Shown here: in pieces, positions 3,639 through 26,362 of the stretch
Numbering within the stretch: position 1 is the stretch's first letter
Layout: each line of letters begins with the position of its first letter
NCBI GenBank assembly: GCA_964629085.1
Contig: CAZVPR010000001.1
Location: 26,517 to 90,516, forward strand
Source: an uncultured Anaerolineales bacterium
GTDB taxonomy: Bacteria > Chloroflexota > Anaerolineae > Anaerolineales > UBA11858
Reading direction: 5' to 3'
DNA length: 64,000 nucleotides
Position numbers and translations under genes: made by a program
The notes under the pieces: model-generated
Databases searched by the model: none
Told to the model about the DNA's origin: nothing
What the model saw: the letters and a program-made list of their open reading frames with translations, nothing else

Positions 3639-5252
3639 CTACTCTATCAATTCACTTCGCAATAATGCTAATCCATAATCATTTTGATAAATTATCTCGA
3701 AGCCCGAAATTTGATTCGCAAAAGCATCACCATAGAATTTTTGCCAGGCTTCCATATCGCCCGGATCGACTGCCGTGGCAACCGCGTCTGGTTTCGTAAA
3801 AGCCAGCACATAATCCATTTCCAGCATTAACATATCGGGCTGAGTGCGGTTGAAGTAATCGTATGATGCCAGTCGCCAATTCATGATGACATCATAATTG
3901 GGCTTTGGCATCACATAAGCCGTCAAGTCACGATAAACTACCAGATTCTCTTCAGCAACGTTCAATTCTTCGAGAACATCCTCAACCTCGTGATAAAAGG
4001 CGATATTCGGTGAGCGTTGTTCCCGATAAAGAATGCCATCATAAATCTCGATATCACTGCGAATATAGACGACGAACTGCGCCAGGATTATTCCCAACGC
4101 ACCAATTAGCAATACCGCAGAAATTCTCTCCTTTTTTTTCCCCGCCTTGATCCAATTCATAAGGTCAGAAAAAGTATCTGGAAATAGGTGAACCAATGCC
4201 GAAGCGACCGGAACAATCACGGGCAAAAAGTACAATGGCCGAATTGATGAAGTGCCCACTGTAAAGAAATAGGGAAGGATGTACATCAATATCAGCAGGT
4301 TGACCAGCCGATAACGCGGCAAAACAATCCCTTTCGCCAATCCAACTATCATTAACAACAGCATAAACCATTGGCCGTAATAAGGCCAGACAATACGATT
4401 AATTTTCTCCGCAGTCAAATTCCAATCTGGATTGACGGAATAATAGCCAATGCGCGTCTGGACAAATTGAAGCCGGGCCGTAGCAATGATCTCGGCGCGT
4501 TCCATGGGCAGCAATAGCAGCGGATTGGATACCACCAACCCCAACGCCATCACCAGCACAAAAGCGGCAGCAAATACAATTGCCCGCAGCCAGGATATCC
4601 TCTTTGCATATACGCCATAAACAAGATAGGTTGGAATGGCAAGCACAAAAAATGCGCCCGAATATTTAACGCTAAAGGCCATACCACAAGTAAAGGCAGC
4701 CAGGAATAAGAAACGCCCAAATCGGAGTTGATCACGATCCAGGAAATAAAAGATGATCACGATCAACAAAACAGCTAAACTATCCGGATGCCACCAAAAA
4801 TTATTGGTTATCACCGCGGGAATAACTAATATAAAAACAAACAAACCTACCACAAACAGAATTGATTTTCGACGAGTCTGGATTGATACCATCAATCCCA
4901 CTGCAAAAATCATCGGCAACACACTGACCATCTGGCGCAAGATCAACATAATCGTGCTGGTCTGATTCATCCAGTCTGACCCAGCCAGCAAGCGGAACGG
5001 GAACAGCACCAAGGCCGATAAAAGATAAAAAGGATACCCATAAAAGTAGTGCAGATAAACCACAAAGTGTCGCACGGTATCATAAAGCGTCTCGCCCGGT
5101 GTCAGCATGCGGATGACATGTTCATACTGGGCAAACTCATCTTTCTCAAAGATGGCCACCATGTTGAGGTTCTCTGCACCGGTAGCATTTGGAAAAGCCA
5201 TCAGGGCAAAGTAAATGACCGCGACTATGGCAAGAAAAAAATGTTTCTTCAT
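3639..5252 (-). CDS. GT-C fold membrane glycosyltransferase (PMT_2/ArnT-like) with C-terminal soluble domain
   Basis: The track ORF is 3639..5429. I place the start at ATG 5252-5250 (MKKHFFLAIVAVIYF...), because it forms an ATGA overlap with the stop of the upstream gene at 5249-5251. The product has more than 10 predicted TM segments, an acidic first loop (FEKDEFAQYEHV) and a soluble tail of about 150 aa. Confidence 0.55.
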   Translation of the reverse strand: MKKHFFLAIVAVIYFALMAFPNATGAENLNMVAIFEKDEFAQYEHVIRMLTPGETLYDTVRHFVVYLHYFYGYPFYLLSALVLFPFRLLAGSDWMNQTSTIMLILRQMVSVLPMIFAVGLMVSIQTRRKSILFVVGLFVFILVIPAVITNNFWWHPDSLAVLLIVIIFYFLDRDQLRFGRFLFLAAFTCGMAFSVKYSGAFFVLAIPTYLVYGVYAKRISWLRAIVFAAAFVLVMALGLVVSNPLLLLPMERAEIIATARLQFVQTRIGYYSVNPDWNLTAEKINRIVWPYYGQWFMLLLMIVGLAKGIVLPRYRLVNLLILMYILPYFFTVGTSSIRPLYFLPVIVPVASALVHLFPDTFSDLMNWIKAGKKKERISAVLLIGALGIILAQFVVYIRSDIEIYDGILYREQRSPNIAFYHEVEDVLEELNVAEENLVVYRDLTAYVMPKPNYDVIMNWRLASYDYFNRTQPDMLMLEMDYVLAFTKPDAVATAVDPGDMEAWQKFYGDAFANQISGFEIIYQNDYGLALLRSELIE

Positions 5253-6670
5253 GAGTGCGAATAGACGTTTGTGCTGGCTGTCAGCAAACCAAATACGATC
5301 CAGGCATTCGGCAAGGCAAAAGAATCCACCGAAAAAGCTACTCCAATAAATATGACCAGGGCCAAAATCCCTGCCTGGCCCCAATAGCGAATCTGTGGGT
5401 CGGGGCCGAGATAAAGATAGATCACACAACCAACCACGCCGACTAAAAAGGCCACATAGGCTGCCATGCCCAAGATTCCTGTTTCTGCCAAAATTCTGAC
5501 GAATAGATTTTTAGGCACGACCAACTGGTTTTTGCCTTCCTTGGGGACAAATTTGTACAGCAATTCCGGTGTAGGGTACAATGGCCGATCGGTCAATTCA
5601 TCTTCAAAATAAAAGACAAAATTTCCCAACCCTATTCCCAGCCAGGGATGCTGTTCATAGATCTGATAAGCCGTCTCCCAATAGATCATGCGCTGGCTAA
5701 AGGCGATGTAATGCAGATATGTACCAACGGCATTTTCATCCGTCCAATAGCGCCAAAGGCGAGCAAAGTATCTGTTCTGTGAACCAACAGCAATCATCAC
5801 AACCAGCAAGAGCACAACCACGGCCCCAACGAAGGCGATCCGTTTGATGAAATTGATCCATCTCTTGGAACCGGGTTTTCTTTTGCGCGGCCAGATCAAC
5901 AGCGCCAACACCAATTGCACGCCAATCAGCACATAGCCTGTGCGAGAATAGGTAAACACCAGCACACCCGAAGCATACAACAACAGCAGCACCTCAACTG
6001 TTAGTCGGTGCCAGCGCCAGCGAAACACGGTTGAATTTGACATCACTGCAGAAAACAACCAGGGCATGAACAAAAAAGTGATCTGTTCAGCGAACCAATT
6101 TGGCTCGTACGCCATCCCAGAGATGCGCGATTCGAATAGGCCGCGGACGGAGATGAAGCCCTGTAAATGCTCGACAGTATCAAACCATTCTGGTGAGTAA
6201 AACAGGATAAAACTGATATGGAGAGTGCCCCACAAAAGCGCAATCAGCAGCCCGGTGTACATCCAGCGCAAAGTGAAGTGCAAATCCGACTCCGTTTGGG
6301 GGGCTACTGCTACCGTGAGGTAAAAGGCTACGCCCATGGCCAGTGTCACCAACATGCGCAAGGAGCGCGCCGAAACCGAAATATTGATTTCAGGGTCGAT
6401 GCCTTGTGTGAAGGCAAAAATCGTACTTGCCAATGACAGCAAGATAAAAACCATCAACGGAATGACATTGCGGGGTATGGGCCTATTGAACAAATAGGGC
6501 AACGTTGTGATCAATAACAAAATGATCAAGGGGTACAAAGCTAACGGACGAACTTCCGTGCGCCCGCCAATACTGCCGGGAAAAAAGGGAAAGCTGGTCA
6601 CAGGCAAAGTAACCAGGAAAACGGCCCAGATGATTTTGCGGGCACGCTCTAGCCAGGACATCGACATCAA
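5249..6670 (-). CDS. O-antigen ligase/polymerase family (Wzy_C-type) membrane protein
   Basis: 473 aa and polytopic. The central region LLLYASGVLVFTYSRTGYVLIGVQLVLALLIW, plus a large loop and further TMs, is typical of Wzy_C proteins. There is a 4-nt overlap with the upstream gene. Confidence 0.7.
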   Translation of the reverse strand: MMSMSWLERARKIIWAVFLVTLPVTSFPFFPGSIGGRTEVRPLALYPLIILLLITTLPYLFNRPIPRNVIPLMVFILLSLASTIFAFTQGIDPEINISVSARSLRMLVTLAMGVAFYLTVAVAPQTESDLHFTLRWMYTGLLIALLWGTLHISFILFYSPEWFDTVEHLQGFISVRGLFESRISGMAYEPNWFAEQITFLFMPWLFSAVMSNSTVFRWRWHRLTVEVLLLLYASGVLVFTYSRTGYVLIGVQLVLALLIWPRKRKPGSKRWINFIKRIAFVGAVVVLLLVVMIAVGSQNRYFARLWRYWTDENAVGTYLHYIAFSQRMIYWETAYQIYEQHPWLGIGLGNFVFYFEDELTDRPLYPTPELLYKFVPKEGKNQLVVPKNLFVRILAETGILGMAAYVAFLVGVVGCVIYLYLGPDPQIRYWGQAGILALVIFIGVAFSVDSFALPNAWIVFGLLTASTNVYSHS

Positions 6671-7932: not shown

Positions 7933-9069
7933 TTACTCCATTTCATAAGATTCTAGCAGGTGATGGTATACGTCCAGGGTAGTCCGGTTAATTTTCTCGT
8001 GCGTAAACTTCTCCAACACAATTTGCCGGCCCCTAGCCCCCATTCGTTTTCGTAATTCTGGGTTTCGTACCAGTTTCTCGATAGCTTCTGCCAGCGCGGG
8101 AGCATCATTTTGGGGAATTAACAGGCCATTTCGATTGTGGTGAACAATCGCCCGACAACCGGGAACATCCGTCGCCACAATCGGGCGACCACAAGCAGCT
8201 GCCTCGATCAGGGTTGTTGGCAGGCCTTCGCCATACATTGTTGGCAAAACGACAATGTTACTCTGGCGGTAAACGCGCTCCATATCTTGCTGCCAGCCCC
8301 ACCATTCGATGATCTTCTGATTATGCCAGGCATTCAGGGTACCTTTTTCCAGGGTTTTTGGATTACCAGGATCAGGTTCTCCCACAAGAACCATGCGCAC
8401 ACCCACCCGTGCCTTTAGAAAACGAGCGGCATCAACAAACACACCCACCCCCTTATCCCAAAGAGTGCGAGCCGCCATCAAAATCACGACCTCCCCATCC
8501 GGTTCGGGAGTGGGCGAAAAGCGACGCGGATCAGCGCCGACGCCCTCGATCAACCAGGTTTGTTGAGGGTACACATACTTTTGCCTGAAGAAGTACTCTC
8601 GATCCGACTGGTTCTCAAAAATCACCGCCGAAGAGATTTTCCTCAAAACGCGCCGGTAAAATGGGTGGATCATTTTACGAATAATAACCGCTTTGGGATC
8701 AGTACTCGAAAAGACATACCCCAAACCCGAAATAGAATTTGCCACAAGCGCAATACCAGACAGGGCAGCAGCCAGCGAGCCATATAGGACGGCTTTTATC
8801 GTATGGTGATGAATGATATCTGGCTTTTCGCGCCGGTAAATCTGCCAAAGACGGAAAAATGAGCCAACTTCCAACCAGGGGGTAATACTTCTACGTTTCA
8901 AACGCCATTCATACCACTGAAAACCATCCTCCCGCAAGCGTTGCACAAATTTGCCATCTGGAGAGACCAAGACCACCTCAAATCCACGTGCGCGCAGATT
9001 GTGCATCAGGGCATAGCGGAAGTTGTATAAAAACCAATCAGTATTGGCAGCGAGGATGATTTTGGGCAT
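7933..9069 (-). CDS. GT4-family (GT-B) glycosyltransferase
   Basis: 378 aa. EX7E region: YGEGLPTTLIEAAACGRPIVATDVPGCRAIV. N-terminal Rossmann-like start: MPKIILAANTDWFLYNFR. Confidence 0.85.
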   Translation of the reverse strand: MPKIILAANTDWFLYNFRYALMHNLRARGFEVVLVSPDGKFVQRLREDGFQWYEWRLKRRSITPWLEVGSFFRLWQIYRREKPDIIHHHTIKAVLYGSLAAALSGIALVANSISGLGYVFSSTDPKAVIIRKMIHPFYRRVLRKISSAVIFENQSDREYFFRQKYVYPQQTWLIEGVGADPRRFSPTPEPDGEVVILMAARTLWDKGVGVFVDAARFLKARVGVRMVLVGEPDPGNPKTLEKGTLNAWHNQKIIEWWGWQQDMERVYRQSNIVVLPTMYGEGLPTTLIEAAACGRPIVATDVPGCRAIVHHNRNGLLIPQNDAPALAEAIEKLVRNPELRKRMGARGRQIVLEKFTHEKINRTTLDVYHHLLESYEME

Positions 9070-9079
9070 GAATTGAATA

Positions 9080-10285
9080 TTAGATATTGGAGGTTGGATA
9101 TTGGAGAATTGACGCGTAAAGGGCTATTATGCGCTTTTCCATGAACGTCCAATTGTATTGAGTTTCATAGAGCTTTCTCCCATTTGTGCCTAATCGTTCA
9201 CGCAAGGCAACGTCCACGTGCATCTTCCGCAATGCCATTTCTAAATCGACTTGGTTGCCATATTCTACAACCAGCCCACATTCTTCTAGCTTTACAATTT
9301 TGTCGATGCGAGTATTTTTTGCCACGACGACTGGTTTGCCAAGCATCATCGCTTCGTAGAGTTTATTCGGACTGGCAAAACGGTGGTTTGGGATCGCTGG
9401 ATCATAGAGCGCCAGGACTATATCAGCAGAACAGGTCAAAGATATAGTTTTTTGATATGGGATGCGTCCATGCCAACGGACATTGGGCATCTTTTTTGTC
9501 ACTGCCAAGATTTGCTGCTCACCCCCCCCGAAACCAGCCAAATCAAGCTGCCAGTTGGGATGATTGTTTAATATGTTCAAGATGTCAAGAAGACCGCGCT
9601 CGATCTGCAGCAACCCCACATAAATCAGCTTCAATTGATCTGTAGTTTGGCGTGGCACCTGGTGCTCGAAGTTCTGGCTTTCATCCTGGGGTGCGTTATA
9701 AATGACCGTACAGCAGTCCGCAGACAAATCTCCAATTTGCTGCAGTCGGGCTTCGTCGGTTACGATCACCCAGTCAACTTTGTGGATGACCCACAAATCT
9801 ACCGAGCGAATTATTCTTTTGATCCAGCCTGGTGTCTGGCGCAAATGATCGGCATAGAAATCAAAAATATCATAGATCACTTTTTTGCCAAACAATACCT
9901 TACTAATCATTGCTGGCAATACGGTGTCGAAATCACAGGCATGGACAATATCAAAATCTTTCTGGTGGCGGAGCATCCAGCGCAACAAAGCCCACTGCCA
10001 GCGTAATAACGGCCAAAAATTGCCCATACCGGTACCGAATTGTGCTTTGATATGCAATCGAATAAGGGGGACTCCTGCAAAGGGTTCATCGAAGGAGATT
10101 CCCCCAATCCGATCCCACCCGACAACGCGAACCGCATACCCAGCCTGAGACAAGGTCTGAGCCATGCGTTCAACGCGTGGATCTGGCGCAATAGGATTCG
10201 AGCGGCAAATTAACACACGCGCAACAGAGGTTTCAGCCACGTATATATTTCTCAGCAACACTGGCGGAATCGCCATCGGCGACAA
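9080..10285 (-). CDS. GT-B glycosyltransferase (GT4-like)
   Basis: 401 aa. N-terminus: VLICRSNPIAPDPRVERMAQTLSQAGYAVRVVGWD. C-terminus: FASPNKLYEAMMLGKPVVVAKNT. The start is uncertain. A GTG at 10240 (VAETSVARVL...) would overlap the wzt stop by 8 nt instead of 53 nt. Confidence 0.75.
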   Translation of the reverse strand: MSPMAIPPVLLRNIYVAETSVARVLICRSNPIAPDPRVERMAQTLSQAGYAVRVVGWDRIGGISFDEPFAGVPLIRLHIKAQFGTGMGNFWPLLRWQWALLRWMLRHQKDFDIVHACDFDTVLPAMISKVLFGKKVIYDIFDFYADHLRQTPGWIKRIIRSVDLWVIHKVDWVIVTDEARLQQIGDLSADCCTVIYNAPQDESQNFEHQVPRQTTDQLKLIYVGLLQIERGLLDILNILNNHPNWQLDLAGFGGGEQQILAVTKKMPNVRWHGRIPYQKTISLTCSADIVLALYDPAIPNHRFASPNKLYEAMMLGKPVVVAKNTRIDKIVKLEECGLVVEYGNQVDLEMALRKMHVDVALRERLGTNGRKLYETQYNWTFMEKRIIALYASILQYPTSNI

Positions 10286-10991
10286 TTACGCCCCCATCGA
10301 GCCAGATAGCTCGCTGGCAATATTCCTTTATCCTGGCCATACTATGCGACACGAAAACAATAGTCGTACCCTGTTCCTGGAATGAGCGCATGCGCTGGAT
10401 GCACTTTTCCTGGAATTGAGCATCGCCTACAGACAATACTTCATCGATCAACAACACATCCAGGCGGGTACTGGTTGCCACGGCAAATCCCAAACGGGCG
10501 ATCATGCCCGTCGAATAAGTGCGCATCGGCGAATCGATAAACTCATCGATTTCAGCAAAGGCGATGATATCTTCGATCCGGCTGGTGATCTCTTTGCGAG
10601 ATAAGCCTAACAAAGCCCCATTGAAGAAAATATTTTCACGGCCGGTCAATTCGAGGTGGAATCCAGCACCCAATTCCAGCAAGGGCGCTGTTTTACCATG
10701 CACGACCACCCTTCCCTGGGTTGGTTTGAGAATGCGGGCCAACAACTTCAACAACGTACTCTTACCAGCCCCATTGCGGCCTATAATGCCAAAGATTTCC
10801 CCCGGATTGATTTCCAAACTGACATCTTTCAACGCCAAAAATTGCCGGTAGTGCAAACGCCGCTGCAGCCAGCGAATGGCGTATTCCTTGACGCCGGAAA
10901 GTTCTTCATGCGGCAAGCGAAAGGCCACCGAGACACTTTCCAGGCGTATGGCAGCCTGCAGTTGAGGGCTATAGTCGGTAGGCATACTCAT
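10233..10991 (-). CDS. wzt: Polysaccharide/teichoic-acid ABC exporter ATP-binding protein (Wzt/TagH type, short form without C-terminal carbohydrate-binding domain)
   Basis: 252 aa. Walker A is GRNGAGKST, the signature is YSTGMIARLGFA, Walker B is VLLIDEVLSVGD, followed by AQFQEKC. Confidence 0.9.
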   Translation of the reverse strand: MSMPTDYSPQLQAAIRLESVSVAFRLPHEELSGVKEYAIRWLQRRLHYRQFLALKDVSLEINPGEIFGIIGRNGAGKSTLLKLLARILKPTQGRVVVHGKTAPLLELGAGFHLELTGRENIFFNGALLGLSRKEITSRIEDIIAFAEIDEFIDSPMRTYSTGMIARLGFAVATSTRLDVLLIDEVLSVGDAQFQEKCIQRMRSFQEQGTTIVFVSHSMARIKEYCQRAIWLDGGVIVADGDSASVAEKYIRG

Positions 10992-11799
10992 CAGATTTGG
11001 CGGTGAAGATCAATCCGCCAAGCAAGAGGGAGGCTAACGAGAAAACCAGGGCGGGCAGCCAGATTCCCCATGTCGGAACAATTTGATAAAGCAAAGGAAG
11101 TCGAAAAGCCTCTACAAAATAATACATGGGATTGAATTGAAACAACCAGCGCCAGTCTTGCGGCACGATCTCCAGCGGATAGATCACCGGCGTAGCATAA
11201 AGCCAGATGGTCAACAGGACGCTATACGCGGGTGCCATATCGGCAAAATAAATGCTGATCGTCGTCAGAATCAACCCTAAACCTAATGAAAACAGCGCTA
11301 ATAGCAGAATCGTCAGCGGCCAGGTCAGCAGAGCCAGGCTCAATTTCACCTTCAAAAAAATGGCGATCAGCAACAGCGGCAATAACGAAATCCCTAAGTT
11401 AACCAACCCGGTTCCAATAGCAGTTACGGCAAAGATCGATTTCGGCACATAAATGCGTTTAATCAGATCCCCGCTCCAAAGCATATCTCCCATCGCTGCG
11501 CTGGTCGTATTGGAGAAGAAAATCCAAATCAGTTGCCCGCTCAAAACGTAAACCGGGAATTTCTCGATCTGGATGCGAAAGAGCTGCGAGAAGACCACGG
11601 TGAGCACCAGCATGGTCAACAGCGGATTCAACATCGTCCAGGCCACGCCTAGGATAGAGCGTTTGTAGCGAGTTTTAATTGACCGGCTGACAAATTGAAC
11701 CACCAATTGGCGATATGTCAGCAGCGCTAGGACCTCCTCACTGAGCGGATGCTCCCGGAGAGATGAATCATAGATGTCGGTGTGGTTGAGCGATTTCAT
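10969..11799 (-). CDS. wzm: ABC-2 type polysaccharide exporter permease (Wzm/TagG type)
   Basis: 276 aa with six hydrophobic segments. The N-terminus (LLTYRQLVVQFVSRSIKTRYKRSILGVAWTMLNPLL) is typical of ABC-2 permeases. It lies immediately upstream of wzt. Confidence 0.85.
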   Translation of the reverse strand: MKSLNHTDIYDSSLREHPLSEEVLALLTYRQLVVQFVSRSIKTRYKRSILGVAWTMLNPLLTMLVLTVVFSQLFRIQIEKFPVYVLSGQLIWIFFSNTTSAAMGDMLWSGDLIKRIYVPKSIFAVTAIGTGLVNLGISLLPLLLIAIFLKVKLSLALLTWPLTILLLALFSLGLGLILTTISIYFADMAPAYSVLLTIWLYATPVIYPLEIVPQDWRWLFQFNPMYYFVEAFRLPLLYQIVPTWGIWLPALVFSLASLLLGGLIFTAKSDEYAYRL

Positions 11800-13907
11800 G
11801 GATCGATAGGGATCAAACGATATAAAAACACGTCTTTGTGCTCATATTCTAAACGAGTATAGCGATTATAGAAATCATCAGATAACGCCGCGGACATATA
11901 CAACTTCGGCCTGTGCTGCTGCTCTGGCGGAAAAGTCAAGACGTAATCATACCCCTTTTCCGCCAGAAAGTGAGCCAACTCATCGGCAGTCGTATTGGTG
12001 TGTAAAGCCAGATAGGCCTCTTTCGAAAAATAAACCCCATAAATCTCAGAGTCGGTGTATAAGCGCAGTTCATTACCAACAGATAATACCTTAAAGCTGC
12101 CCTGCTGGTCTAAAAACTCAAAAGCACCATACACCGGTAAGATGCGCTCAACAAACTCTTCCATGCTCTCGCTGCTGCTCCAGATTCGGATGGGATAACG
12201 TTCAGGGATCTCCCACCAACGTACAGTAAACGCCAGACGTGTGGAAAACAAATAAACTAGACAAAGGATGACAAACCCGGTGGCATAGACTTTTTTCCAG
12301 GCAGATAACTTCGCAGCTATCATCTCGATGTTCGCAGCAGCCAACACGCTGAACAAAGGAAAAATTGGCATCAAATAACGCGCGCTGGCCCCAAAACTGA
12401 ACAACATCGCCAGAGCCACAGCCAACACGCCAAAAAATATCAATAGATTTCTCCGCCGATGATACATCCAGGGCAAAGACAAAAGGGGCAACCCTGCCAG
12501 CACAGCGCCGGACGATTCATGATAATAGGCATGCGATTGGGCGACTCCCCTCCAGGGAAAATGAAGAATATTGCGCAATGTGTTTTCGGTAGGTTGGAAT
12601 ATGAAAAAATTCCGATCGAAATACTTGGGACTTTGAAACAGGGAATTCAAATTCGGAAATACCGGATTGCCCGTCCAAAACCAATCGCGAATCAGCCAAG
12701 GAGCCCATAGCAAAATTACCGGAGTAAAGATGATCGAAATGTTCCTCCAGGATAGCTTTCGATAGTGGTGAAGTCTCCACAACATCAGTCCCCAAAAAGG
12801 GAGCAGCAGCCAAAAAGCCGACAATTTCGTCCCCACGGCAAGCCCGGAGAAAATCCCAAAAAGCAGCAACCACCCGCGCTCGAGATTGTGTTCCCATAGC
12901 AACCCACAGTGCAAAGCAGCTGTGAGGAAAACAGCGATATAAATATCGATATATGTGGTGGCCGACTCAATTCCGATGATCGGCAATGAATAGAGCACTA
13001 ATGCAGCGATCAACCCCATTCTACGATTTACCAGGCGCTTGCCGATGAAAAACGTCTGCACGGCCAGCACCAACCCGGCCGAAAAGTTGATCAATCCAGT
13101 TAATGGTTGGTCGCCAATAGAGAGCGCCATCACATAGAACATTTCGCCATAATGCGCAAAATAAGTCTGGAAGGATTCGGGCAGCTCAATCATTCTGCCG
13201 GCCTGGAGATAGCGCACCGGTACAGCCAGGTGATAGCTGAGCGAGTCATAGCGTACGGCTGGCGCTAACGACCACAAGAAACTCCCTAAGGCGATGATAA
13301 TCACCAAACTTATGGTCAACGAGTCGAATTTGGAATCTGGTAACCGCCGAAAATTGAAACGCCGGAAGCGCGCCCGATGACGTACCAGCCCCCAAAGCGA
13401 GATCAGGCTGAACAGAGCGGAGAAAACCCACTGGCGATACAAACCGATCACCCCCAGGAGCAGGGTCAACATCACCAGCGCTCCCCACCCCAAAACCAGG
13501 CCAATGATCAACCTTTCGACTGAAACTAAGTCGGCAGTGATCTTCAGCAAGCCGATCAGAAAGTCACCGATCATCCAACTAACCAACAAAAACCAGCCCA
13601 ACAGTAAAATACTGTGCAGCGCGCGCGCATTGTGTAAAGGGACGATGATCGCAATGGCAGCGACCAGAAGACCAAACAATAGCAGCCAGCGATACTTGCC
13701 CGTCAGAAACAGGAGCCCAACGAACGAGAAAACAGCCAGGTACGCAGCGGCTATCCAGAGATCGGCGGGATACGATACGAAGGGTGGTTTGGGCAGCCAA
13801 AAGGTGTTGAAGGCGTAGCCAGTGGCGGAAAGCAATCCAAACAATACACCCGCCATACCAATCCCTGCCATTAGGCGATTTTTCAGCACATCACGGAAAT
13901 TTGACAA
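11796..13907 (-). CDS. Large polytopic membrane protein, probable GT-C glycosyltransferase, with C-terminal soluble domain
   Basis: 703 aa with more than 12 hydrophobic segments. Loop motif: VRYDSLSYHLAVPVRY. The soluble tail is about 130 aa. There is a 4-nt overlap with wzm. An alternative start is Met13 (13871). Confidence 0.5.
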   Translation of the reverse strand: MSNFRDVLKNRLMAGIGMAGVLFGLLSATGYAFNTFWLPKPPFVSYPADLWIAAAYLAVFSFVGLLFLTGKYRWLLLFGLLVAAIAIIVPLHNARALHSILLLGWFLLVSWMIGDFLIGLLKITADLVSVERLIIGLVLGWGALVMLTLLLGVIGLYRQWVFSALFSLISLWGLVRHRARFRRFNFRRLPDSKFDSLTISLVIIIALGSFLWSLAPAVRYDSLSYHLAVPVRYLQAGRMIELPESFQTYFAHYGEMFYVMALSIGDQPLTGLINFSAGLVLAVQTFFIGKRLVNRRMGLIAALVLYSLPIIGIESATTYIDIYIAVFLTAALHCGLLWEHNLERGWLLLFGIFSGLAVGTKLSAFWLLLPFWGLMLWRLHHYRKLSWRNISIIFTPVILLWAPWLIRDWFWTGNPVFPNLNSLFQSPKYFDRNFFIFQPTENTLRNILHFPWRGVAQSHAYYHESSGAVLAGLPLLSLPWMYHRRRNLLIFFGVLAVALAMLFSFGASARYLMPIFPLFSVLAAANIEMIAAKLSAWKKVYATGFVILCLVYLFSTRLAFTVRWWEIPERYPIRIWSSSESMEEFVERILPVYGAFEFLDQQGSFKVLSVGNELRLYTDSEIYGVYFSKEAYLALHTNTTADELAHFLAEKGYDYVLTFPPEQQHRPKLYMSAALSDDFYNRYTRLEYEHKDVFLYRLIPIDP

Positions 13908-16900
13908 ATTCTTGTAATCTTTCTAGAAGAGCCGAGACGGTATTCGACCAGTCTGCTGCGGCGATGAATTCGCGAACATCCTTGTCAGTGGAAAATACCC
14001 CCTTCTGGTCAAGCGCACGATCCAATTGCTGGGCAAAATCGTCAGGTGAATCGGCCAGGAGTACACCGGGCCAGTCCTTGATCTCGTCCAGCGGAACGGC
14101 CACAACCGGCATCCCCATGGCCAGATATTCCAACACTTTCAGCGGGCGCACTGCATGGGTTAGCTGATTCAGCTTGAAAGGCAGCACGCCGACATCAAAA
14201 TGGGAAATCGTCCGGGGGATTTCTTCATAATTTACCGCTTTTAGATATTGGATATTGGGTAGTTGGATCAACCGCTCAATCTCGATTGAAACGGGGCCGA
14301 CAAGCTGGAAATGGTAATCGGGTCTCAGCTTGGCAACTTCAACGAGCAAATCCACATCAATCCAGTCAGCAATGGCACCGTGGAAACCGATTACGGGCGC
14401 AGATAGTGTTTGGGGATGTTTTTCGGATTTTTGGAAATGAGTCAGGTCGATGCCATTCGGCACCAGGATCACATCCGACCGAACAGGTTTAATTTGCCGA
14501 TGAAGCATATCTGATGAAGTCATCACCAGATCGGCTTCATTCATCAACTGATGGTGGAAATCGACCGCCCGCTGTCCTTTGGGCAAATCCTTGTCCGATG
14601 CGGCGTGGATGCTGATGTCATCCAATACATCATAGACCACCAAGGGGTCATCGAATTGATCCAAAAGCTGGTAATGGAAAGGATAATAGATAAACACCAC
14701 AGGCCGTTGAAGATTGATCTCATCCTCCGGCCCCAGAATATGCAGCAAGGGCTCTGGGCTGGCGCTGCGCTTGTCAGGGTCCTGCCAAAAGGTTTCAATG
14801 CCAGCCTTGGCAAGTTGGACAGCCAGGTGATGCGGACGCTGCTTGATGCCCTCCCAGGGGATTCCCGGTGCAGCCGTGAATAAAGCCACAGGTCTTTCGA
14901 GAATTTCACCCTTATCATCTACCGGTAGGTATCGACGCAAAACTTGCTCCCAACGAGAGCGCCAGCTTACGATGGAAAACGACTGGGCTACATCACGCCC
15001 CCGGCGTCCAAATTTCTGTCGCAGCGCTTTATCTTCGATCAACTTTTTCAATGCCCACAGCAGGGCCTCAGCAGACACATCGATCAATAAGCCATTGAAA
15101 TCTGGCAGAATTAAGTTCGGCAGACCGCCCACATTGGTAGCGATGACGGCATTGCCCGATGCCATGGCTTCCAAACAAGATAACGAAGTACCTTCGCTAT
15201 GTACTGTCGGGATGATCGTAATGTGGGCCTGCTGGTAGGCCTGGGGCATCTCTTCTGGCGGCAACCAATACCAATGGATCCGGCCAAGATAGTGCTCGCT
15301 CAAACTGAGGATATGTTCCTCTTCGCGCGGGTCAGCTTTGCCAACAAAGTGAAATTCCACCTGTGGATATGCATTCAAGATTTCTTCCACCACATCGGCA
15401 ACCAGCCAAAAACCGCGCGGCCGGTACAAACGGCGCGGATACAAAACGACGATTTTTTCATCAACGCCTGTGGGCCCAACATCAAATGCCTTGGTATCTA
15501 CAAAATTAGGGATATAGTCAAATTTATCCACCAGGGCGGCTGAGGCCGCCGCGGCCCGGAGAGTATTGATGGTATTGGTATCAACGGATACGATCCGATC
15601 CAGATACCGACCGGCGTCAAAGACTGCCTGCATGGCCGTCGGGTTGGCTTGCATTTCGGCATAATCCCAAAAAACACCATGGCTGATCCCTACTCCAGGA
15701 GCTTCGCTTGTAAATTGCGCCAGCGAGAATGGGGAATAAATGGTCAGCGCCTGGGCCTGATCGAACTTCTGCACCTCATCTGCCAGGCGCGTTGCCTCAC
15801 CCCCCACATCGATCCCCGTCACTCGCAAACCCTGATAGTAACGCACCCAATAGCCATTGCCGCACTGGTACAACTCAGGATAATACCCAAACGCCCGAAA
15901 CAGCCGCGCCAACTCCAGCATATAGCGCTCAGCCCCACCGTAATACATATTGTTGCCGTCGAAATCAAAAAAAGTATACGAAAGAATAACCACCCTGCGC
16001 TCAGCCGAGATATGTGGATGCCCCAACGACAGCGGTGGTTGAAAAGCTATCTCTTCCGTCCCCAGCACCTGAGGTGCTTCTTTTTGGAAAAAGTGACGCA
16101 GCCCTTTTAGAATTCGCTTGAATTTGGTATAGCCCCTGTACAGTACGAAACGCAACAGTGAACCAACGTTTAGCGTGCGAGGCAGACGAAGAGCCTCGAT
16201 CTGCCTCCGAAGAAACTCAATCTCCTGGATTTTCCCTACCAGCACGCCCGTATGATCGTGCTCAATCTGCCGGATCATCCCCATCTGGTCGATATCGCGC
16301 TGACGTTCATAAGCGCTCAGTTGCTCAACCAGTTCTTCGTTTTGCTGCACCTGAAGTTCTTTCAGATATGCAAGTATTGCCGCGGCTTCCTTTTCGAGCA
16401 GGCGAACTGTATCGGCGAATTGATCTGCGTTTTGCTGCTCCAATTCCCGAATTCTTTTGGTCAATTTCGATGCATTCTGCTGCTCTATGGCTTGCAATTG
16501 CGACGTCAGGCGTTGTTCATGGTCTAGCTCAATCTGGTGAATTTGTTCAGCCAGAGTCTTGGCGCTTTGGGCTTCAATCTCGCGGACACGCTCAACCAAA
16601 TCTGCCACATGCGCCTGCTGCAACCGCTCAAGCTGCGCGCTCAGGGTCGAGAGTTGGGCATTAAATTCCTGGCGCAATTGTTGCGCGTCACGCTCGTCGC
16701 CAATTTTGATCGCCAAAGCATCTGCCAAGGCTGATGAAACCAACTCAAGGTTTTGCGATGTGGATTGGGATTCTTCCTGGGAAATGCCCAGCCAGAATTT
16801 AGAAGCTGGCTGTTCCCCAACACTTCCCAGCCCGGCCAACAAATAATTGGTTTGTGTTTCGGGCAGCAGTCCTGAACGATGGACTTCGAGCAGCACCCGT

Positions 16901-17538
16901 TGCAAATCTTCCGAGAGACCATTGATGCCTGTGACGAAGCTTTCGGTCCATCCCGAGCCAATATAAGCGCTGCCCTGATATTGCATACCAGCCGCTTCGA
17001 AGACAGAACCCAGCGCCACCGCCGGGATCTCTTTACCAAAAGGCCACAAGCCCTGGCTCGATTTTTGAATCCGCCAAATCCAATACCAATAATTGGAGAA
17101 GTTGGGCACCATTACGAGCACGTACTTTCGGCTGCGACTGGCCATGCCGCGCAAGAGTTCGACCTGCTCATCAGAAGCATAGTGCTCCAAAACCCCAGCG
17201 TTGAATACCAGATCAAATTCCGGCTCGCCGGGCATGAATACGTCTTGGATTGAAAAGTTCGCTTCAACACCGGCCTGCGCAAACGACTTGCGCGCCGTAT
17301 CGATGGCCTCGGTCGAAAAATCCATCAAAGTCATTTCGAATTTGCCCCGCTGTGCCAGGGCCAGACTCTGCTCTCCCGCTCCACAGCCCGCTTCGAGGAT
17401 CCGGCCACCATCGTGAAGCAAACCGTCCACAATACCAACGAATTCATCCCGAAATTTCTGTACGTTCTCAGCTTCCGCGTCCTGATGAAGATTAGCGTAA
17501 TAGTAATCCCACTTCTTGCGTTCTTGGTCGGAATCCAT
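13891..17538 (-). CDS. Multidomain protein: SAM-dependent methyltransferase + ~135-aa 15-residue helical repeat + GT4 domain + second GT-B domain
   Basis: The track start at 17541 is a TTG. The ATG at 17538 forms a TGATG junction with the upstream small ORF. SAM motif I is ILEAGCGAGEQSLALAQRG. The helical repeat spans aa 319-452. A basic amphipathic segment follows (SLLRFVLYRGYTKFKRILKGLRHFF). The GT4 EX7E region is EGTSLSCLEAMASGNAVIATNVGGLPNLI. The second GT-B C-terminus is RPLKVLEYLAMGMPVVAVPL. The frame is uninterrupted. Confidence 0.8.
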   Translation of the reverse strand: MDSDQERKKWDYYYANLHQDAEAENVQKFRDEFVGIVDGLLHDGGRILEAGCGAGEQSLALAQRGKFEMTLMDFSTEAIDTARKSFAQAGVEANFSIQDVFMPGEPEFDLVFNAGVLEHYASDEQVELLRGMASRSRKYVLVMVPNFSNYWYWIWRIQKSSQGLWPFGKEIPAVALGSVFEAAGMQYQGSAYIGSGWTESFVTGINGLSEDLQRVLLEVHRSGLLPETQTNYLLAGLGSVGEQPASKFWLGISQEESQSTSQNLELVSSALADALAIKIGDERDAQQLRQEFNAQLSTLSAQLERLQQAHVADLVERVREIEAQSAKTLAEQIHQIELDHEQRLTSQLQAIEQQNASKLTKRIRELEQQNADQFADTVRLLEKEAAAILAYLKELQVQQNEELVEQLSAYERQRDIDQMGMIRQIEHDHTGVLVGKIQEIEFLRRQIEALRLPRTLNVGSLLRFVLYRGYTKFKRILKGLRHFFQKEAPQVLGTEEIAFQPPLSLGHPHISAERRVVILSYTFFDFDGNNMYYGGAERYMLELARLFRAFGYYPELYQCGNGYWVRYYQGLRVTGIDVGGEATRLADEVQKFDQAQALTIYSPFSLAQFTSEAPGVGISHGVFWDYAEMQANPTAMQAVFDAGRYLDRIVSVDTNTINTLRAAAASAALVDKFDYIPNFVDTKAFDVGPTGVDEKIVVLYPRRLYRPRGFWLVADVVEEILNAYPQVEFHFVGKADPREEEHILSLSEHYLGRIHWYWLPPEEMPQAYQQAHITIIPTVHSEGTSLSCLEAMASGNAVIATNVGGLPNLILPDFNGLLIDVSAEALLWALKKLIEDKALRQKFGRRGRDVAQSFSIVSWRSRWEQVLRRYLPVDDKGEILERPVALFTAAPGIPWEGIKQRPHHLAVQLAKAGIETFWQDPDKRSASPEPLLHILGPEDEINLQRPVVFIYYPFHYQLLDQFDDPLVVYDVLDDISIHAASDKDLPKGQRAVDFHHQLMNEADLVMTSSDMLHRQIKPVRSDVILVPNGIDLTHFQKSEKHPQTLSAPVIGFHGAIADWIDVDLLVEVAKLRPDYHFQLVGPVSIEIERLIQLPNIQYLKAVNYEEIPRTISHFDVGVLPFKLNQLTHAVRPLKVLEYLAMGMPVVAVPLDEIKDWPGVLLADSPDDFAQQLDRALDQKGVFSTDKDVREFIAAADWSNTVSALLERLQEFVKFP

Positions 17539-17744
17539 CAATTTATTCTAATCATTTCAGTGAAATCCGGCACCCTTCGATACGCACCGATTGCAATCAT
17601 CCATGTATTAGCATCTTGAGTAAGCCGAGGCGAAGCCAAGGCTGTATCGAAAGGTGCGGTGTTAATCAGGGTGCTCATTGCATTTTTAAACACAAAGTTC
17701 ATTGGCAATCGAACGGTACCATCCAATAATACCAATGAACTCAT
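17538..17744 (-). CDS. Hypothetical small protein (68 aa)
   Basis: The ORF fills the gap between the GT2 gene and the multidomain gene, and its stop overlaps the next ATG (TGATG). I see no obvious SD and no recognisable motif. Confidence 0.3.
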   Translation of the reverse strand: MSSLVLLDGTVRLPMNFVFKNAMSTLINTAPFDTALASPRLTQDANTWMIAIGAYRRVPDFTEMIRIN

Positions 17745-17766: not shown

Positions 17767-18537
17767 TCAGCGCAACGTATTACGTCGGCGCCAGTTGATC
17801 AATGGCGCCAGAATGCGACGGGCAAAATAGCGTAGATAAATCCAGGAAAAATAACTACCACCATCACGGCGATGAACTTGCAGCATCTCTGGCCAACAAC
17901 GTTCGTCAGCAGCAATGGTTTTGGCATCGTCGTGCAAGCGAAAATTTGCCCAGGTGTGACCCGGAATATAGCGAATTCCTGATACCTTCGCCAATCTCAC
18001 CCACAGATCATAATCCATCGCAAAATAGAAACTGGGATCCAATGGGCCAACTTGTCGCCATAAATCTGCTCGCCAGAAGGCGGCCTGCTGAGGGATATAA
18101 ACTCCACCGCGCCGCAAGCGAGCAAAACTGGTCTGCTGGGCGTTGAATTTGCCAATCACACTATCCTCTCCATCGATGAAATTGGCATCACCATAGATCA
18201 AGCCAGCTTCGGGGTATGCTTGAAATTCGGCCACCGCCTGTGAGACAGCCTTTGGGAGATAGGTATCATCCGAGTTCAGCCAAGCCATGATATCCCCCTT
18301 GGCGCGCGCGAAGCCCTTGTTGATGGCATCCGTCTGGCCTTGATCCGGTTCAGAAACCCACCAGGACAGGCGATCGGAATACTTTTGCAAGATATCCACA
18401 CTGCCATCTCTTGAACTGCCATCGACAACAATGTACTCGATGTTCTCGTAGTCCTGATCCAACACCGATTGGATGGTAGCTTCCAGGTATTTGGCCTGGT
18501 TAAAGGAGGGGGTTACGATAGATACCAGAGGTTTCAT
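17767..18537 (-). CDS. GT2-family glycosyltransferase
   Basis: 256 aa. [42 protein letters not shown], and a DxD-type WLNSDDTY. Confidence 0.85.
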
Positions 18538-18740: not shown

Positions 18741-20261
18741 TCAAGGCGATGCATTCTGATTCAGGTCGAAGATAAAGTAGCCATCCCCTTCGGCCATGAG
18801 CAAATAGTTATCGAAAAGGCGCTCCTTCAACTCGGGGTTGTCGTTGAATTCGCCCATTTTAGTGACGACAAAATAATCATATTCATCGATGCGGCGGAGA
18901 ATATCGTTCTTGAAATTACTTACATCTTCCCCAGCCAGAGCGCGGATCTGGATATCGTTGGAGTCCGGCCAACTGTCGTTGCCTACATGTCCATAATAAG
19001 CAAGATAGTAGCCATAAGCATGACTGAGTGAAACGGTCTTCTTGCCGGGCTCGATCAACTCACCGATCTGCTGCCAGTATTGATATTCTTCACGATAATC
19101 GTGGCGAACAAGATTCACGCGCACATCCCAAACTTTGAAAAACGCGCCCCCAATGATCAGGAGCACCACAAACCCCCGCGCCAGGAGCCCGCTATCCACA
19201 GCAGCCAGGCGCTGGAAAACTTCCGATAAAACGACGATTAATGAAATCGCCACTATCAATATTAATGGCAGTTGGTAATAGTCATGCGTCAGGGTGTGAT
19301 AGGCAAAAGTCAGACTGTAAACCCCATAGCCAAACCACAAACCTGCTAATAGGCCGCGTTTACCTTTATCTTTCAATAAAAGGATTCCAGCCAACGCGGC
19401 CAGAACGGTCCCATAACCAGCGATATTCGTTATCATTTCCTGCCAGCGGATGTAGAAGGCCGGGTCACGAAGGAGAGCGGGGAATACCCGGTAGCTGAGC
19501 TGCTGCTGGAGGAAACCAGCAATCCACAAACCGTAAATATTGAATAAAGCCGTAGGCAATATTGTGACCACTGCCATTATCCAGACTTGCTTGTCACGCA
19601 GCGCTTTCCACAGACCCACACCGAACAAAATTAAACCGACATAGCCACCAGCGATAAAGAAGACGGCCACGCTCTTGATATAAATGGCCAAACCGCCCAG
19701 CGCCCCGGCGAGAATTGCCATTTTCAGCGTGCGCATACGATACCAACGCAAAGCGGCCCACAAAGCCCAGGCAATCAAGCAGGTCATCAAAGGGTCAGGT
19801 TGAAAGACTCGGCTGCCAAAGATGCCATAGGGCAAAAACAGAATGTAGAACATAGCCACCAAGGAGCCATCCAAATTACCGAGTTCACGCCCTAAGAGCA
19901 AAACAACCAGCCCAGCCAGCACCCAAAAGATCGATGATAATAAACGCGGAACCCACAACTGCTCCGCGCCGCCAAGCCTGTACAACCAGACTGTGAGCTG
20001 CTCCAGCAATTGAGGCTCGATGGTGGTCTCGTTGTTCCAGGCATACATAGCCGCGGCGCGCTCATCTTCTGGGATATCGTCGCGGCTTTCATAAAATATA
20101 CCGCGGGCGATAATCGCCGAACGGTGCTGGCGAGTGGAATGGAAATCAAAGGGCGGATCGGTCAGATCATAAACACGGATTCCAAGCCCCAGTGCTACTC
20201 CGAATACAACTAAGATTAGAAAAAACCAGGTAGGTTGAAAAAAGTAAAGTTTTTCTTTCAC
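18741..20261 (-). CDS. GT-C fold membrane glycosyltransferase (PMT_2/ArnT-like)
   Basis: 506 aa and polytopic. First loop: YDLTDPPFDFHSTRQHRSAIIARGIFYE. The soluble tail is about 100 aa. There is a 4-nt overlap with the upstream GT2 gene. Confidence 0.65.
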   Translation of the reverse strand: MKEKLYFFQPTWFFLILVVFGVALGLGIRVYDLTDPPFDFHSTRQHRSAIIARGIFYESRDDIPEDERAAAMYAWNNETTIEPQLLEQLTVWLYRLGGAEQLWVPRLLSSIFWVLAGLVVLLLGRELGNLDGSLVAMFYILFLPYGIFGSRVFQPDPLMTCLIAWALWAALRWYRMRTLKMAILAGALGGLAIYIKSVAVFFIAGGYVGLILFGVGLWKALRDKQVWIMAVVTILPTALFNIYGLWIAGFLQQQLSYRVFPALLRDPAFYIRWQEMITNIAGYGTVLAALAGILLLKDKGKRGLLAGLWFGYGVYSLTFAYHTLTHDYYQLPLILIVAISLIVVLSEVFQRLAAVDSGLLARGFVVLLIIGGAFFKVWDVRVNLVRHDYREEYQYWQQIGELIEPGKKTVSLSHAYGYYLAYYGHVGNDSWPDSNDIQIRALAGEDVSNFKNDILRRIDEYDYFVVTKMGEFNDNPELKERLFDNYLLMAEGDGYFIFDLNQNASP

Positions 20262-25690: not shown

Positions 25691-26362
25691 CTACTTACCT
25701 TTTTTTCTCCTCATCAAAAAGTCGACGATCTCAAAATCCAATTCTTCATCGATGTCCCAGGCTTCAGCGGCGTCAATTTCAAACATCATCGGACGCTCAC
25801 CAAGTCGATTACGGCGTTGTTGCAGGATTTCCTTAGTGAAGATATAGATACATGAGTTTTCTTCATAATTCGGAGGCAGATCTTGGGTTTGCAGAAGAAC
25901 GGCTGGATTATGGTTTATCGCGCGTCCCAGTTGATCCCACAAACGTGTCTGAATGCGTGTTACAGAAAATAGAGAGTCATACGCCGGATATTGATCTAGA
26001 AAAGATTGGATCGCATTCGAAACGGTTTCAGGACACAAAAGTGGATTCGTGCTATGCGTTTGGAGATAAAAGTCGGTCTCTACTTGCCCTGCATCATATG
26101 TCAGCACTTCATTCATTGGCACTTCGCCTGGACATAAATAATCAGGTCGTTCAATAACACGTACAGATGGGAAGTGCCGTTGCAGACCATTCATCACTTC
26201 TGAGCTATCTGTGTTCACGATAACTTCTGAAATTTCTGGGACATTCAAAAGTGTTTCAACGATGTAGTGGAAAAGAGGTTTTCCCGCAAGTAAACGATAA
26301 TTTTTCCCTGGCACTCGTTGAGAATTATGGCGCATGGGAACGAGGGCGACGATTCTAGTCAT
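25691..26362 (-). CDS. CTP_transf_3 cytidylyltransferase (acylneuraminate/ulosonate cytidylyltransferase family)
   Basis: 223 aa. The N-terminus IVALVPMRHNSQRVPGKNYRLLAGKPL matches the family P-loop-like motif. Confidence 0.75.
   Translation of the reverse strand: MTRIVALVPMRHNSQRVPGKNYRLLAGKPLFHYIVETLLNVPEISEVIVNTDSSEVMNGLQRHFPSVRVIERPDYLCPGEVPMNEVLTYDAGQVETDFYLQTHSTNPLLCPETVSNAIQSFLDQYPAYDSLFSVTRIQTRLWDQLGRAINHNPAVLLQTQDLPPNYEENSCIYIFTKEILQQRRNRLGERPMMFEIDAAEAWDIDEELDFEIVDFLMRRKKGK

Follow-up and report, generated by a model that had tools for sequence, protein, structure and literature searches.

Several experimentally studied glycan assembly systems keep their polymerising glycosyltransferases (GTs) close to the membrane and carry the terminator on the distal tip of a coiled coil, among them WbbB, Klebsiella O7 ORF6 and WbdD/WbdA (PMC11231755, PMC5082667) as well as WsaE (PMC2943079). 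In WbbB of Klebsiella O12 and Raoultella terrigena, terminator, coiled-coil ruler and two-GT polymerase share a single chain, and the coil sets chain length (PMC11231755, PMC9587256); the terminator is a beta-Kdo glycosyltransferase (GT99), and the partner Wzt recognises the Kdo cap through a cap-binding module. Klebsiella pneumoniae O7 ORF6, which like WsaE we compared by its published description, is encoded with wzm/wzt; it begins with a methyltransferase, continues as a coiled coil and ends in two GT modules (PMC11231755). In Escherichia coli O9a the work is divided between two proteins: WbdD has a coil of about 20 nm, with a methyltransferase at the far end and a membrane-binding amphipathic region at the near one, and the polymerase WbdA consists of two GT4 modules (PMC5082667, PMC3482155). 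WsaE of Geobacillus stearothermophilus NRS 2004/3a, a non-LPS host, joins an N-terminal O-methyltransferase to two GT domains in the making of a poly-rhamnan, in a cluster where it overlaps wzm/wzt and which contains a Wzy_C-domain transferase, WsaB, that places the glycan on an S-layer protein (PMC2943079). All terminated systems studied by experiment have a Wzt with a carbohydrate-binding module by which the cap is read (PMC11231755).

Here we describe a 1215-aa protein that looks like a new member of this class of single-chain glycan builders with length measurement, encoded in the 64-kb stretch analysed here (the window), DNA of an uncultured Anaerolineales (Chloroflexota) bacterium. Its parts run from the N- to the C-terminus as a class I SAM methyltransferase, a long helix, a hinge with a basic amphipathic helix, a GT4 module and a TuaH-like GT-B module. 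The preliminary description had reported an uninterrupted four-part frame, and this is confirmed: counted from a TTG the frame has 1216 codons, and the ATG that forms its second codon gives 1215 aa, the length that public gene callers also assign. All the computed results are in keeping with the proposal made there that one chain could combine terminator, ruler and polymerase; the arrangement is not new as a kind, being preceded by WbbB, O7 ORF6 and WsaE (PMC11231755, PMC2943079). The features of the gene are as follows.

13891..17541, minus strand: whole ORF, 1215 aa, ATG at 17538 and stop at 13891-13893.
16774..17538, minus strand: aa 1-255, class I SAM-dependent methyltransferase, proposed chain-capping module (Pfam, AlphaFold2, Foldseek, motif).
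16285..16758, minus strand: aa 261-418, variable part of the long helix, proposed ruler (model, autocorrelation, register profile, indels).
16192..16284, minus strand: aa 419-449, conserved block at the membrane-proximal helix end, GMIRQIEHDHTGVLVGKIQEIE.LR.Q (column conservation).
16078..16191, minus strand: aa 450-487, Pro-containing hinge LPRTLNVG followed by a basic amphipathic helix, proposed membrane-interface anchor.
14929..15993, minus strand: aa 516-870, GT4 (retaining GT-B) module with EX7E (Pfam, invariant residues, model).
13924..14865, minus strand: aa 892-1205, second GT-B module, TuaH-like, of divergent GT4 type (NCBIfam, model).

The methyltransferase assignment is borne out by a Methyltransf_25 match at aa 47-134 (Pfam, E 2.5e-16), by a domain pLDDT of about 90 in AlphaFold2, and by the SAM motif ILEAGCGAGEQS, in which E49, G51, G53, G55 and D73 are invariant across 27 orthologues (39-80% identity). 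The Foldseek matches are class I methyltransferases of a generic kind, with the sugar O-methyltransferase RebM among them. By sequence, WbdD is no nearer to this domain than dozens of unrelated class I methyltransferases, ranking about 46th, at 25 bits, among the PDB methyltransferases matched; the likeness is one of superfamily only, and the WbdD kinase domain is absent. The protein had been likened to WbdD, and in family terms that comparison fails; the methyltransferase's lack of special closeness to WbdD also counts against reading it as a terminator. Nor does the domain group with non-glycan methyltransferases, as had been considered: it belongs to a discrete subfamily, for which 1.84 billion proteins yield 151 representatives at E<=1e-30, and a coil-like stretch and GT modules come after it in almost all of the best 120 homologues (47-100% identity to the domain).

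The monomeric AlphaFold2 model shows helix at aa 261-429 and 431-449, about 189 aa in all and ~28 nm long if straight. The helical repeat of about 190 aa noticed earlier thus holds as to length, and a repeat is indeed present, of 15 residues rather than a heptad: hydrophobic autocorrelation peaks at lags 15 and 30, with no peak at lags 7, 14 or 21. This repeat stands out best from about aa 284 onwards; positions 1, 5 and 8 of the unit are hydrophobic, and position 12 is S/H/N/Q. The underlying DNA contains no tandem repeat. This is also where the orthologues differ. The coil segment (aligned to aa 276-424) ranges from 63 to 160 aa and is the sole widely length-variable part, set against 246-256 aa for the methyltransferase, 344-362 aa for the GT4 segment, 19-24 aa for the inter-GT linker and 319-332 aa for the second GT-B segment. 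Between close orthologues the coil indels measure 15, 30, 45, 11, 7 or 4 aa, which are coiled-coil quanta that keep the core in register. Indels alone would be compatible with a flexible linker too, but one would hardly expect a linker to stay periodic, and the 15-residue hydrophobic pattern is kept in orthologues at >=50% identity. The helix presumably forms an oligomeric coiled coil, although the monomeric model and a pLDDT that drops to 45-50 in its distal half count against a coiled-coil ruler.

At its membrane-proximal end the helix runs into the conserved block, with a column conservation of 67% compared with 36% for the variable coil; within aa 417-433 pLDDT is under 50, and a break in the helix falls at aa 430. 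Beyond the hinge, the basic amphipathic stretch pointed out previously is modelled as a helix at aa 458-487, with a net charge of +7 and an 18-mer whose hydrophobic moment (0.68) exceeds that of any other in the protein. The charge is +3 to +14 in aligned orthologues and +7 to +14 in those >=50% identical, and we propose that this helix is a membrane-interface anchor.

The GT half likewise agrees with the earlier reading of a GT4 domain with EX7E followed by a second GT-B domain. Glycos_transf_1 matches aa 693-849 (E 2.4e-33), the EX7E glutamates E782 and E790 are invariant in the 27 orthologues, and so are R901, P902, H903, K1134 and E1137 of the second module, which matches NCBIfam TuaH at aa 948-1205 (E 6e-30, under the curated cutoff). 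AlphaFold2 gives two complete GT-B modules (pLDDT 87.8, pTM 0.82). Both are of GT-B/GT4 type, as in WbdA and unlike the GT2 modules of ORF6. Unlike the present protein, ORF6 has a kinase domain, an Ig-like carbohydrate-binding module and methyl-phosphate addition, and its host is a proteobacterium with LPS, unlike the Anaerolineales host; from WbbB, the present protein differs in having a methyltransferase in the terminator position.

Downstream of the gene lie the following.

11796..13907, minus strand: GT-C / PMT-like polytopic membrane protein, overlapping the 3' end of the 1215-aa gene.
10969..11799, minus strand: Wzm, ABC-2 permease, 276 aa.
10233..10991, minus strand: Wzt, nucleotide-binding subunit, 252 aa, ABC_tran only, lacking the Wzt_C carbohydrate-binding module.
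7933..10285, minus strand: two stand-alone GT4 glycosyltransferases, candidate adaptor or primer enzymes, syntenic in all orthologous loci.
5249..6670, minus strand: Wzy_C-domain membrane protein of O-antigen-ligase / O-oligosaccharyltransferase type, syntenic.

The single GT-C gene noted between the large gene and wzm/wzt is there, as it always is in the orthologous loci, and the order of large gene, GT-C, wzm, wzt, GT4, GT4, unknown gene and Wzy_C is kept down to 53% identity. The window also encodes several further modifying enzymes, nonulosonic-acid genes and BFO_1060-type transferases.

By analogy with WsaB (PMC2943079), the Wzy_C protein is a candidate for moving the exported glycan onto its acceptor. 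Together with the nonulosonic-acid genes and BFO_1060-type transferases, it gives the window a resemblance to loci for general protein O-glycosylation, and since sequence cannot reveal polymerase activity, the two GT modules might add only a few defined sugars, with Wzy_C transferring the oligosaccharide to protein, the methyltransferase modifying one residue and the helix acting as a spacer or dimerisation element. We consider this improbable: Wzm/Wzt exporters typically serve polymers finished in the cytoplasm, dual-GT proteins encoded next to wzm/wzt polymerise in WbdA, WbbB, O7 ORF6 and WsaE (PMC11231755, PMC2943079), and a fixed-size product is hard to square with a helix whose length varies in evolution. 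An O-antigen product, as in E. coli O9a, fares far worse. A formal resemblance to WbdD/WbdA and the WaaL-like domain of the Wzy_C protein are its sole support; all full-length orthologues come from Anaerolineales/Chloroflexota MAGs, and in NCBIfam, Wzm and Wzt match exporters of teichoic acid and galactan best. Because key LPS genes were not found in Chloroflexota (PMC7332563), we reject a lipopolysaccharide product as very improbable. Mycobacterial galactan and wall-teichoic-acid type systems (NF050108/NF050109, PRK13545) also use a short Wzt lacking a cap-binding module to export polyprenol-linked polymers in envelopes of the non-LPS type, and GT-C enzymes decorate these polymers later outside the membrane, but such systems have no methyltransferase-coil terminator, and the NCBIfam scores lie far under the curated cutoffs, so that the relation is one of analogy, not membership.

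The short Wzt had been flagged at the outset as a tension, and it is real: its length is 243-259 aa in all Anaerolineales orthologous loci, and a search of the whole window for a Wzt_C-like sequence found none. This sets the locus apart from WbbB and O9a, from WsaE, whose Wzt is predicted to bind the methylated end (PMC2943079), and from ORF6, whose Wzt we assume to be cap-binding from the rule for terminated systems (PMC11231755), and it counts against a terminator. Systems lacking a terminal cap have such a Wzt (PMC11231755), and the methyltransferase might instead decorate internal or all residues, as in polymethylated polysaccharides, with the helix as an oligomerisation scaffold and length set by coupling of polymerisation to export. 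The several modifying enzymes in the window make decoration common at the locus, and a methylmannose polysaccharide mannosyltransferase (7qsg) is among the Foldseek matches of the GT modules, although no nearer than other GT4 enzymes. We nevertheless think this unlikely, since a decorating enzyme would have no use for a rigid helix that sets it ~28 nm apart from the polymerase, and that helix is the one part to vary in length, in register-preserving quanta. Moreover, a Planctomycetales MAG encodes the fused methyltransferase-coil-GT form together with a Wzt that does bear Wzt_C.

We therefore favour, with moderate confidence, the view that one polypeptide polymerises, measures and terminates a glycan whose synthesis follows the ABC-transporter-dependent route. 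The amphipathic helix would keep the protein at the cytoplasmic face of the membrane, where the two GT modules next to it would lengthen a polyprenol-linked chain with two alternating linkages; the long helix would keep the methyltransferase off the membrane, to be reached only by chains grown long enough, and methylation of the non-reducing end would stop growth. Export of the capped chain by Wzm/Wzt would follow. Decoration by GT-C enzymes may take place outside the membrane, and the Wzy_C protein may link the chain to its acceptor, either a protein or the cell wall. As the exporter has no cap-binding module, capping would set chain length without gating export.

Three features distinguish the protein from its precedents: a Wzt without a cap-binding domain throughout the clade, a coil periodicity of 15 residues instead of seven, and the conserved EHDHTG block adjoining the putative membrane anchor. 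Modular relatives exist as well. A split version, sought from the outset, was found in Crenalkalicoccus, where a methyltransferase-plus-coil gene (462 aa) precedes a GT-GT gene (820 aa), mirroring the two-protein layout of WbdD and WbdA, and a coil-less homologue from Anaerolinea thermolimosa consists of the GT-GT part alone, with an amphipathic helix at its N-terminus.

We suggest that the product of the large gene is best explained as a membrane-anchored, single-chain enzyme that would polymerise, measure and cap an envelope or S-layer-type glycan exported by an ABC transporter, a reading that we consider probable. The gene and its immediate downstream neighbours, the latter assigned with Pfam and NCBIfam, are as follows.

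13891-17541, minus strand: large gene, an uninterrupted frame of 1216 codons from TTG, or 1215 aa from an ATG at codon 2
11796-13907: GT-C/PMT-like membrane protein
10969-11799: Wzm
10233-10991: Wzt, 252 aa, with ABC_tran as its only domain

Public gene callers predict the identical 1215-aa product on 16 metagenomic contigs, and public annotation also places a 68-aa ORF upstream of the gene. Plus-strand ORFs within it (e.g., 15649-16110 and 16158-16664) were taken as shadows of the strongly conserved coding frame. Every part listed in the preliminary description (methyltransferase, long helix, basic amphipathic stretch, GT4 domain with the EX7E motif and second GT-B domain) was recovered with Pfam, NCBIfam and AlphaFold2, and the GT-C gene does lie between the large gene and wzm/wzt. 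In Pfam, aa 41-146 match a class I SAM methyltransferase, and a GT4 enzyme is identified by Glycos_transf_1 (aa 693-849, E 2.4e-33) together with a weak match to Glyco_transf_4 (aa 533-683). NCBIfam recognises a further GT-B module, TuaH-like, at aa 948-1205, with E 6e-30 and a score well under the curated cutoff. In the AlphaFold2 model of aa 1-530, a confident methyltransferase fold (pLDDT about 90), which takes up aa 1-255 as a single fold, runs straight into one helix (aa 261-429 plus 431-449); it is broken at LPRTLNVG, beyond which lie a second helix (aa 458-487) and a disordered linker. The model of aa 490-1215 contains two complete GT-B modules (pLDDT 87.8, pTM 0.82). Both the methyltransferase SAM motif ILEAGCGAGEQS and the EX7E pair E782/E790 are invariant across 27 orthologues. 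The chain holds two tandem GT4-type modules, the second divergent and TuaH-like, whose top structural matches are retaining GT4 enzymes such as MshA, sucrose-phosphate synthase, PglA and PimA. Two tandem retaining GT-B modules in one polypeptide are also what WbdA of Escherichia coli O9a has, and we regard it as improbable that the glycosyltransferase pair is non-polymerising.

The architecture of the protein is not new and the concept is established; given its published precedents, the protein joins an already known kind of enzyme. WbbB of Klebsiella serotype O12 is terminator, ruler and polymerase in one chain, in Klebsiella O7 ORF6 a coiled coil in the middle of the chain separates the methyltransferase at the N-terminus from two GT modules at the C-terminus, and the coiled-coil terminator-polymerase strategy is described as occurring widely among bacteria (PMC11231755). 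In Geobacillus stearothermophilus, WsaE joins an N-terminal 2-O-methyltransferase to two rhamnosyltransferase domains, and the present protein resembles it, by architecture and context, in its N-terminal methyltransferase and two GT domains encoded beside wzm/wzt, with a Wzy_C transferase (5249-6670, minus strand) in the cluster (PMC2943079). Like other members of this class, it would have a terminator-type catalytic domain at one end, here a methyltransferase with an invariant SAM motif, and two GT modules at the membrane-proximal end, after an amphipathic basic helix, and it is encoded with wzm/wzt. Where the class has its extended coiled coil, a monomer model predicts a helix of 189 residues, with conserved 15-residue hydrophobic periodicity and register-preserving indels, that may form such a coil. 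The protein differs from other members in that its Wzt lacks the C-terminal cap-binding module Wzt_C. Unlike the GT2 modules of Klebsiella O7 ORF6, its two GT modules are of the GT-B/GT4 type, as in WbdA. What is particular to the protein is the lack of a kinase, the 15-residue periodicity, a conserved membrane-proximal block, the GT-C gene in its operon and the Wzt without a cap module.

The preliminary description had proposed a fusion of WbdD-like and WbdA-like functions, and in terms of protein family the WbdD half of that proposal is not supported. No kinase domain was matched in the protein by Pfam, NCBIfam or further searches, in contrast to WbdD, where one lies next to the methyltransferase. 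Specific kinship of the methyltransferase to WbdD was likewise rejected: the WbdD structures 4azw and 4azs appear in a PDB profile search at E 1e-4 and 25 bits, at a rank of about 46, behind about 45 unrelated methyltransferases, and WbdD is not among the top 50 Foldseek matches. Fold and profile searches place the domain among generic class I methyltransferases. When aa 1-260 were searched exhaustively against 1.84 billion representatives, 151 proteins formed a discrete set at E<=1e-30, the majority with lengths of 700-2100 aa. In all of the best 120 homologues (120/120) the methyltransferase domain is 47-100% identical, and in nearly all of them it is followed by a coil-like stretch of 40-430 aa and then by glycosyltransferase modules, usually including one similar to the second GT-B module of our protein. 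Across these 120 homologues and the 27 orthologues, then, the methyltransferase does not group with non-glycan methyltransferases and the helix is retained in the orthologues; the domain appears to belong to a glycan-machinery subfamily. One likeness to WbdD does hold, namely that the coil ends in an amphipathic region, putatively one that associates with the membrane. This predicted region, at aa 458-487, holds the highest hydrophobic-moment 18-mer of the protein (0.68) and has a net charge of +7; it stays basic despite sequence drift in orthologues at least 50% identical (+7 to +14), and can drop to +3 in the most distant.

The helical repeat of the preliminary description stands as a periodic helix, but its period is 15 residues and not a heptad. 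AlphaFold2 predicts 189 residues of helix in the monomer, with pLDDT falling to 45-50 in the distal half, and the hydrophobic autocorrelation reaches 0.36 at a lag of 15 residues and 0.24 at 30, with values near zero at 7, 14 and 21. Within the 15-residue unit, position 1 is hydrophobic in 83% of cases, position 5 in 69% and position 8 in 56%, while S, H, N or Q usually occupies position 12. Many orthologues at least 50% identical have a hydrophobic period of 3.69-3.75 residues (with positive lag-15 autocorrelation), and more distant ones a period of about 3.5. A search for tandem repeats at the DNA level in the coil region found none; the repeat is an ancient one, confined to the protein sequence.

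Length was compared in an alignment of 27 full-length orthologues (39-80% identity, 1127-1281 aa), in which only the helical part corresponding to aa 276-424 varies widely in length, the other segments being nearly constant.

Segment lengths across the 27 orthologues
Methyltransferase: 246-256 aa
Helix aligned to aa 276-424: 63-160 aa
GT4 module: 344-362 aa
Inter-GT linker: 19-24 aa
GT-B2 module: 319-332 aa

Pairwise alignment of close orthologues shows that indels in this helical linker measure 15, 30 or 45 aa, or else 11, 7 or 4 aa, as between the orthologues P0004 and P0005 (30), P0006 and P0008 (15), P0015 and P0016 (15), and P0008 and P0014 (45 + 11); the compared pairs are phylogenetically non-independent, and the sizes are hence a pattern and not a statistic. 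On sequence grounds, these are increments that would hold a coiled-coil core in register. Quantal sizes are limited to the indels between close relatives; a coil measured in strict multiples of 15 across the family was rejected, as total linker lengths are congruent neither modulo 15 nor modulo 7. At about 1.5 Å per residue, the modelled 189-residue helix would span about 28 nm, and the orthologues would range over roughly 15-30 nm; the coil of WbdD measures about 20 nm (PMC5082667). The helix thus appears to behave like a structural spacer under selection, and its variation in steps of 15 residues supplies natural length variants with which the ruler idea can be tested. That the coil is instead a scaffold, with a methyltransferase that decorates the glycan, seems unlikely to us. 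At the membrane-proximal end of the coil, a block at aa 419-449 (16192-16284; GMIRQIEHDHTGVLVGKIQEIE) with an EHDHTG motif (aa 426-431) has a column conservation of 67%, whereas the variable coil has 36%; AlphaFold2 models the block with low confidence and with a break in the helix at aa 430. It may serve for docking or as a trigger.

The short Wzt, which the preliminary description had flagged as a tension, is both real and conserved across the clade: Wzt measures 243-259 aa in all orthologous Anaerolineales loci. At the sequence level, nothing credible resembling Wzt_C was found in the six frames of the 64-kb window, either by tblastn with six Wzt_C domains or with an HMM built from them. 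According to the literature, Wzt carries a cap-binding module in all terminated systems (PMC11231755), and the Anaerolineales clade departs conservedly from this rule. Two readings follow: chain length is set by capping while export goes ungated, or the methyltransferase does not act as a terminator. A fuller version of the first option, which we offer tentatively and think rather doubtful as a whole, is that in this clade a coiled-coil ruler and a methyl cap set chain length while export, with a Wzt that lacks the cap-binding module, is not gated by cap recognition; that the co-transcribed GT-C, or else the Wzy_C transferase, may recognise the cap extracellularly; and that the ruler is a non-heptad coil of 15-residue period, probably right-handed or nearly straight, evolving by whole 15-residue steps. 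If true, termination and export quality control would be separable, though they are coupled in every studied system. With the module conservedly absent, nature offers a way to test whether capping can be uncoupled from export gating, and this loss is the one feature that a specialist might pursue.

Wzm and Wzt lie one gene downstream of the large gene, an arrangement kept in orthologous loci, and loci with as little as 53% identity share the following order of genes: MptE-like, PMT_2 and GT2 genes, the large gene, GT-C, Wzm and Wzt, followed by GT4, GT4, an unknown 350-aa protein, Wzy_C and an unknown protein of about 540 aa. Further members of the locus are listed here.

11796-13907, 18741-20261 and 21253-23037: three GT-C/PMT_2 membrane proteins, interleaved with the GT2 enzymes
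17767-18537 and 20258-21253: two GT2 enzymes
3639-5429 (about 540-596 aa) and 6667-7725 (352 aa): proteins without a family match that flank the Wzy_C gene, syntenic in all orthologous loci

The pairing of GT-C/PMT_2 and GT2 proteins, also kept in orthologous loci, resembles by analogy the way in which exported polymers are decorated by a polyprenyl-phosphate-sugar synthase and an extracytoplasmic transferase acting as a pair, and the proteins flanking Wzy_C may be acceptor or accessory proteins for glycan transfer. No initiating phosphoglycosyltransferase of the Bac_transf or MraY/WecA type was found among the window ORFs of at least 150 aa that were scanned; the locus of Anaerolinea thermolimosa has one (L024 14918-16354). 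A promoter and terminator scan of 5-24 kb gave counts near those of shuffled controls.

To our knowledge, the envelope glycans of the Chloroflexota are essentially uncharacterised, and the present protein would extend the coiled-coil ruler strategy for glycan length to this phylum. That it serves LPS O-antigen synthesis we hold to be very improbable, as key LPS genes are absent from the Chloroflexota (PMC7332563), and the product would hence not be an O-antigen in the strict sense.

All of the 27 aligned orthologues with a source name are labelled Anaerolineales/Chloroflexota, a placement adopted from these MAGs for the source of the window as well. More distant relatives suggest that the parts of the protein are modular. 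A split version, of the kind that the preliminary description had anticipated, occurs in Crenalkalicoccus roseus, where a 462-aa gene (methyltransferase, Ala/Glu-rich coil and short basic tail) overlaps the start of an 820-aa GT4-GT-B gene. The coil of this split protein (L032 9797-11182) contains near-identical tandem protein repeats, with AQAERALEEARAEAAVLAE occurring twice, a sign that the coil may recently have grown by duplication. In Anaerolinea thermolimosa IMO-1 the GT4-GT-B protein (762 aa) occurs alone, beginning with a basic amphipathic helix, and its gene adjoins a 423-aa Wzt with Wzt_C; a Planctomycetales MAG has a fused form of 1607 aa along with a 463-aa Wzt bearing Wzt_C. Wzt_C is present in the relatives' loci L022 and L024. 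In Acidobacteriota relatives, a polysaccharide pyruvyl transferase domain takes the place of the methyltransferase. The methyltransferase-coil-glycosyltransferase module is widespread in uncultured Chloroflexota, Acidobacteriota and Planctomycetota. In the pyruvyl-transferase loci of Acidobacteriota, Wzt is short (259-294 aa) and the Wzm ORFs reach 818-1037 aa with boundaries as called (L056 1-2565, L061 2744-5854, L066 5384-7837); in the one scanned with Pfam, that of L066, the ABC-2 domain is C-terminal and preceded by an extension of about 550 aa without a Pfam match. This extension might carry substrate recognition.

The rest of the window, 23058-63968 on the minus strand, is one long glycan island, which also holds several further methyltransferases.

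29848-31734 (fused to an AP_endonuc_2 domain) and 56419-57501, minus strand: NeuB-type synthases
25691-26362, 31803-32549 and 50790-51704, minus strand: CMP-sugar synthetase-like genes
27327-28178 and 41118-42161, minus strand: sulfotransferases
33418-35136, minus strand: PAPS synthase
36195-37100, minus strand: TauE exporter
28175-29791 and 42167-43597, minus strand: BFO_1060/Capsule_synth-like transferases

This gene content suggests a sulfated glycan containing nonulosonic acid; genes for GDP-mannose synthesis were not seen in the window. The gene at 1529-3634, on the edge of the island, encodes a protein of 701 aa that combines an InhA-like MAM domain with a region resembling HExxH metalloproteases.
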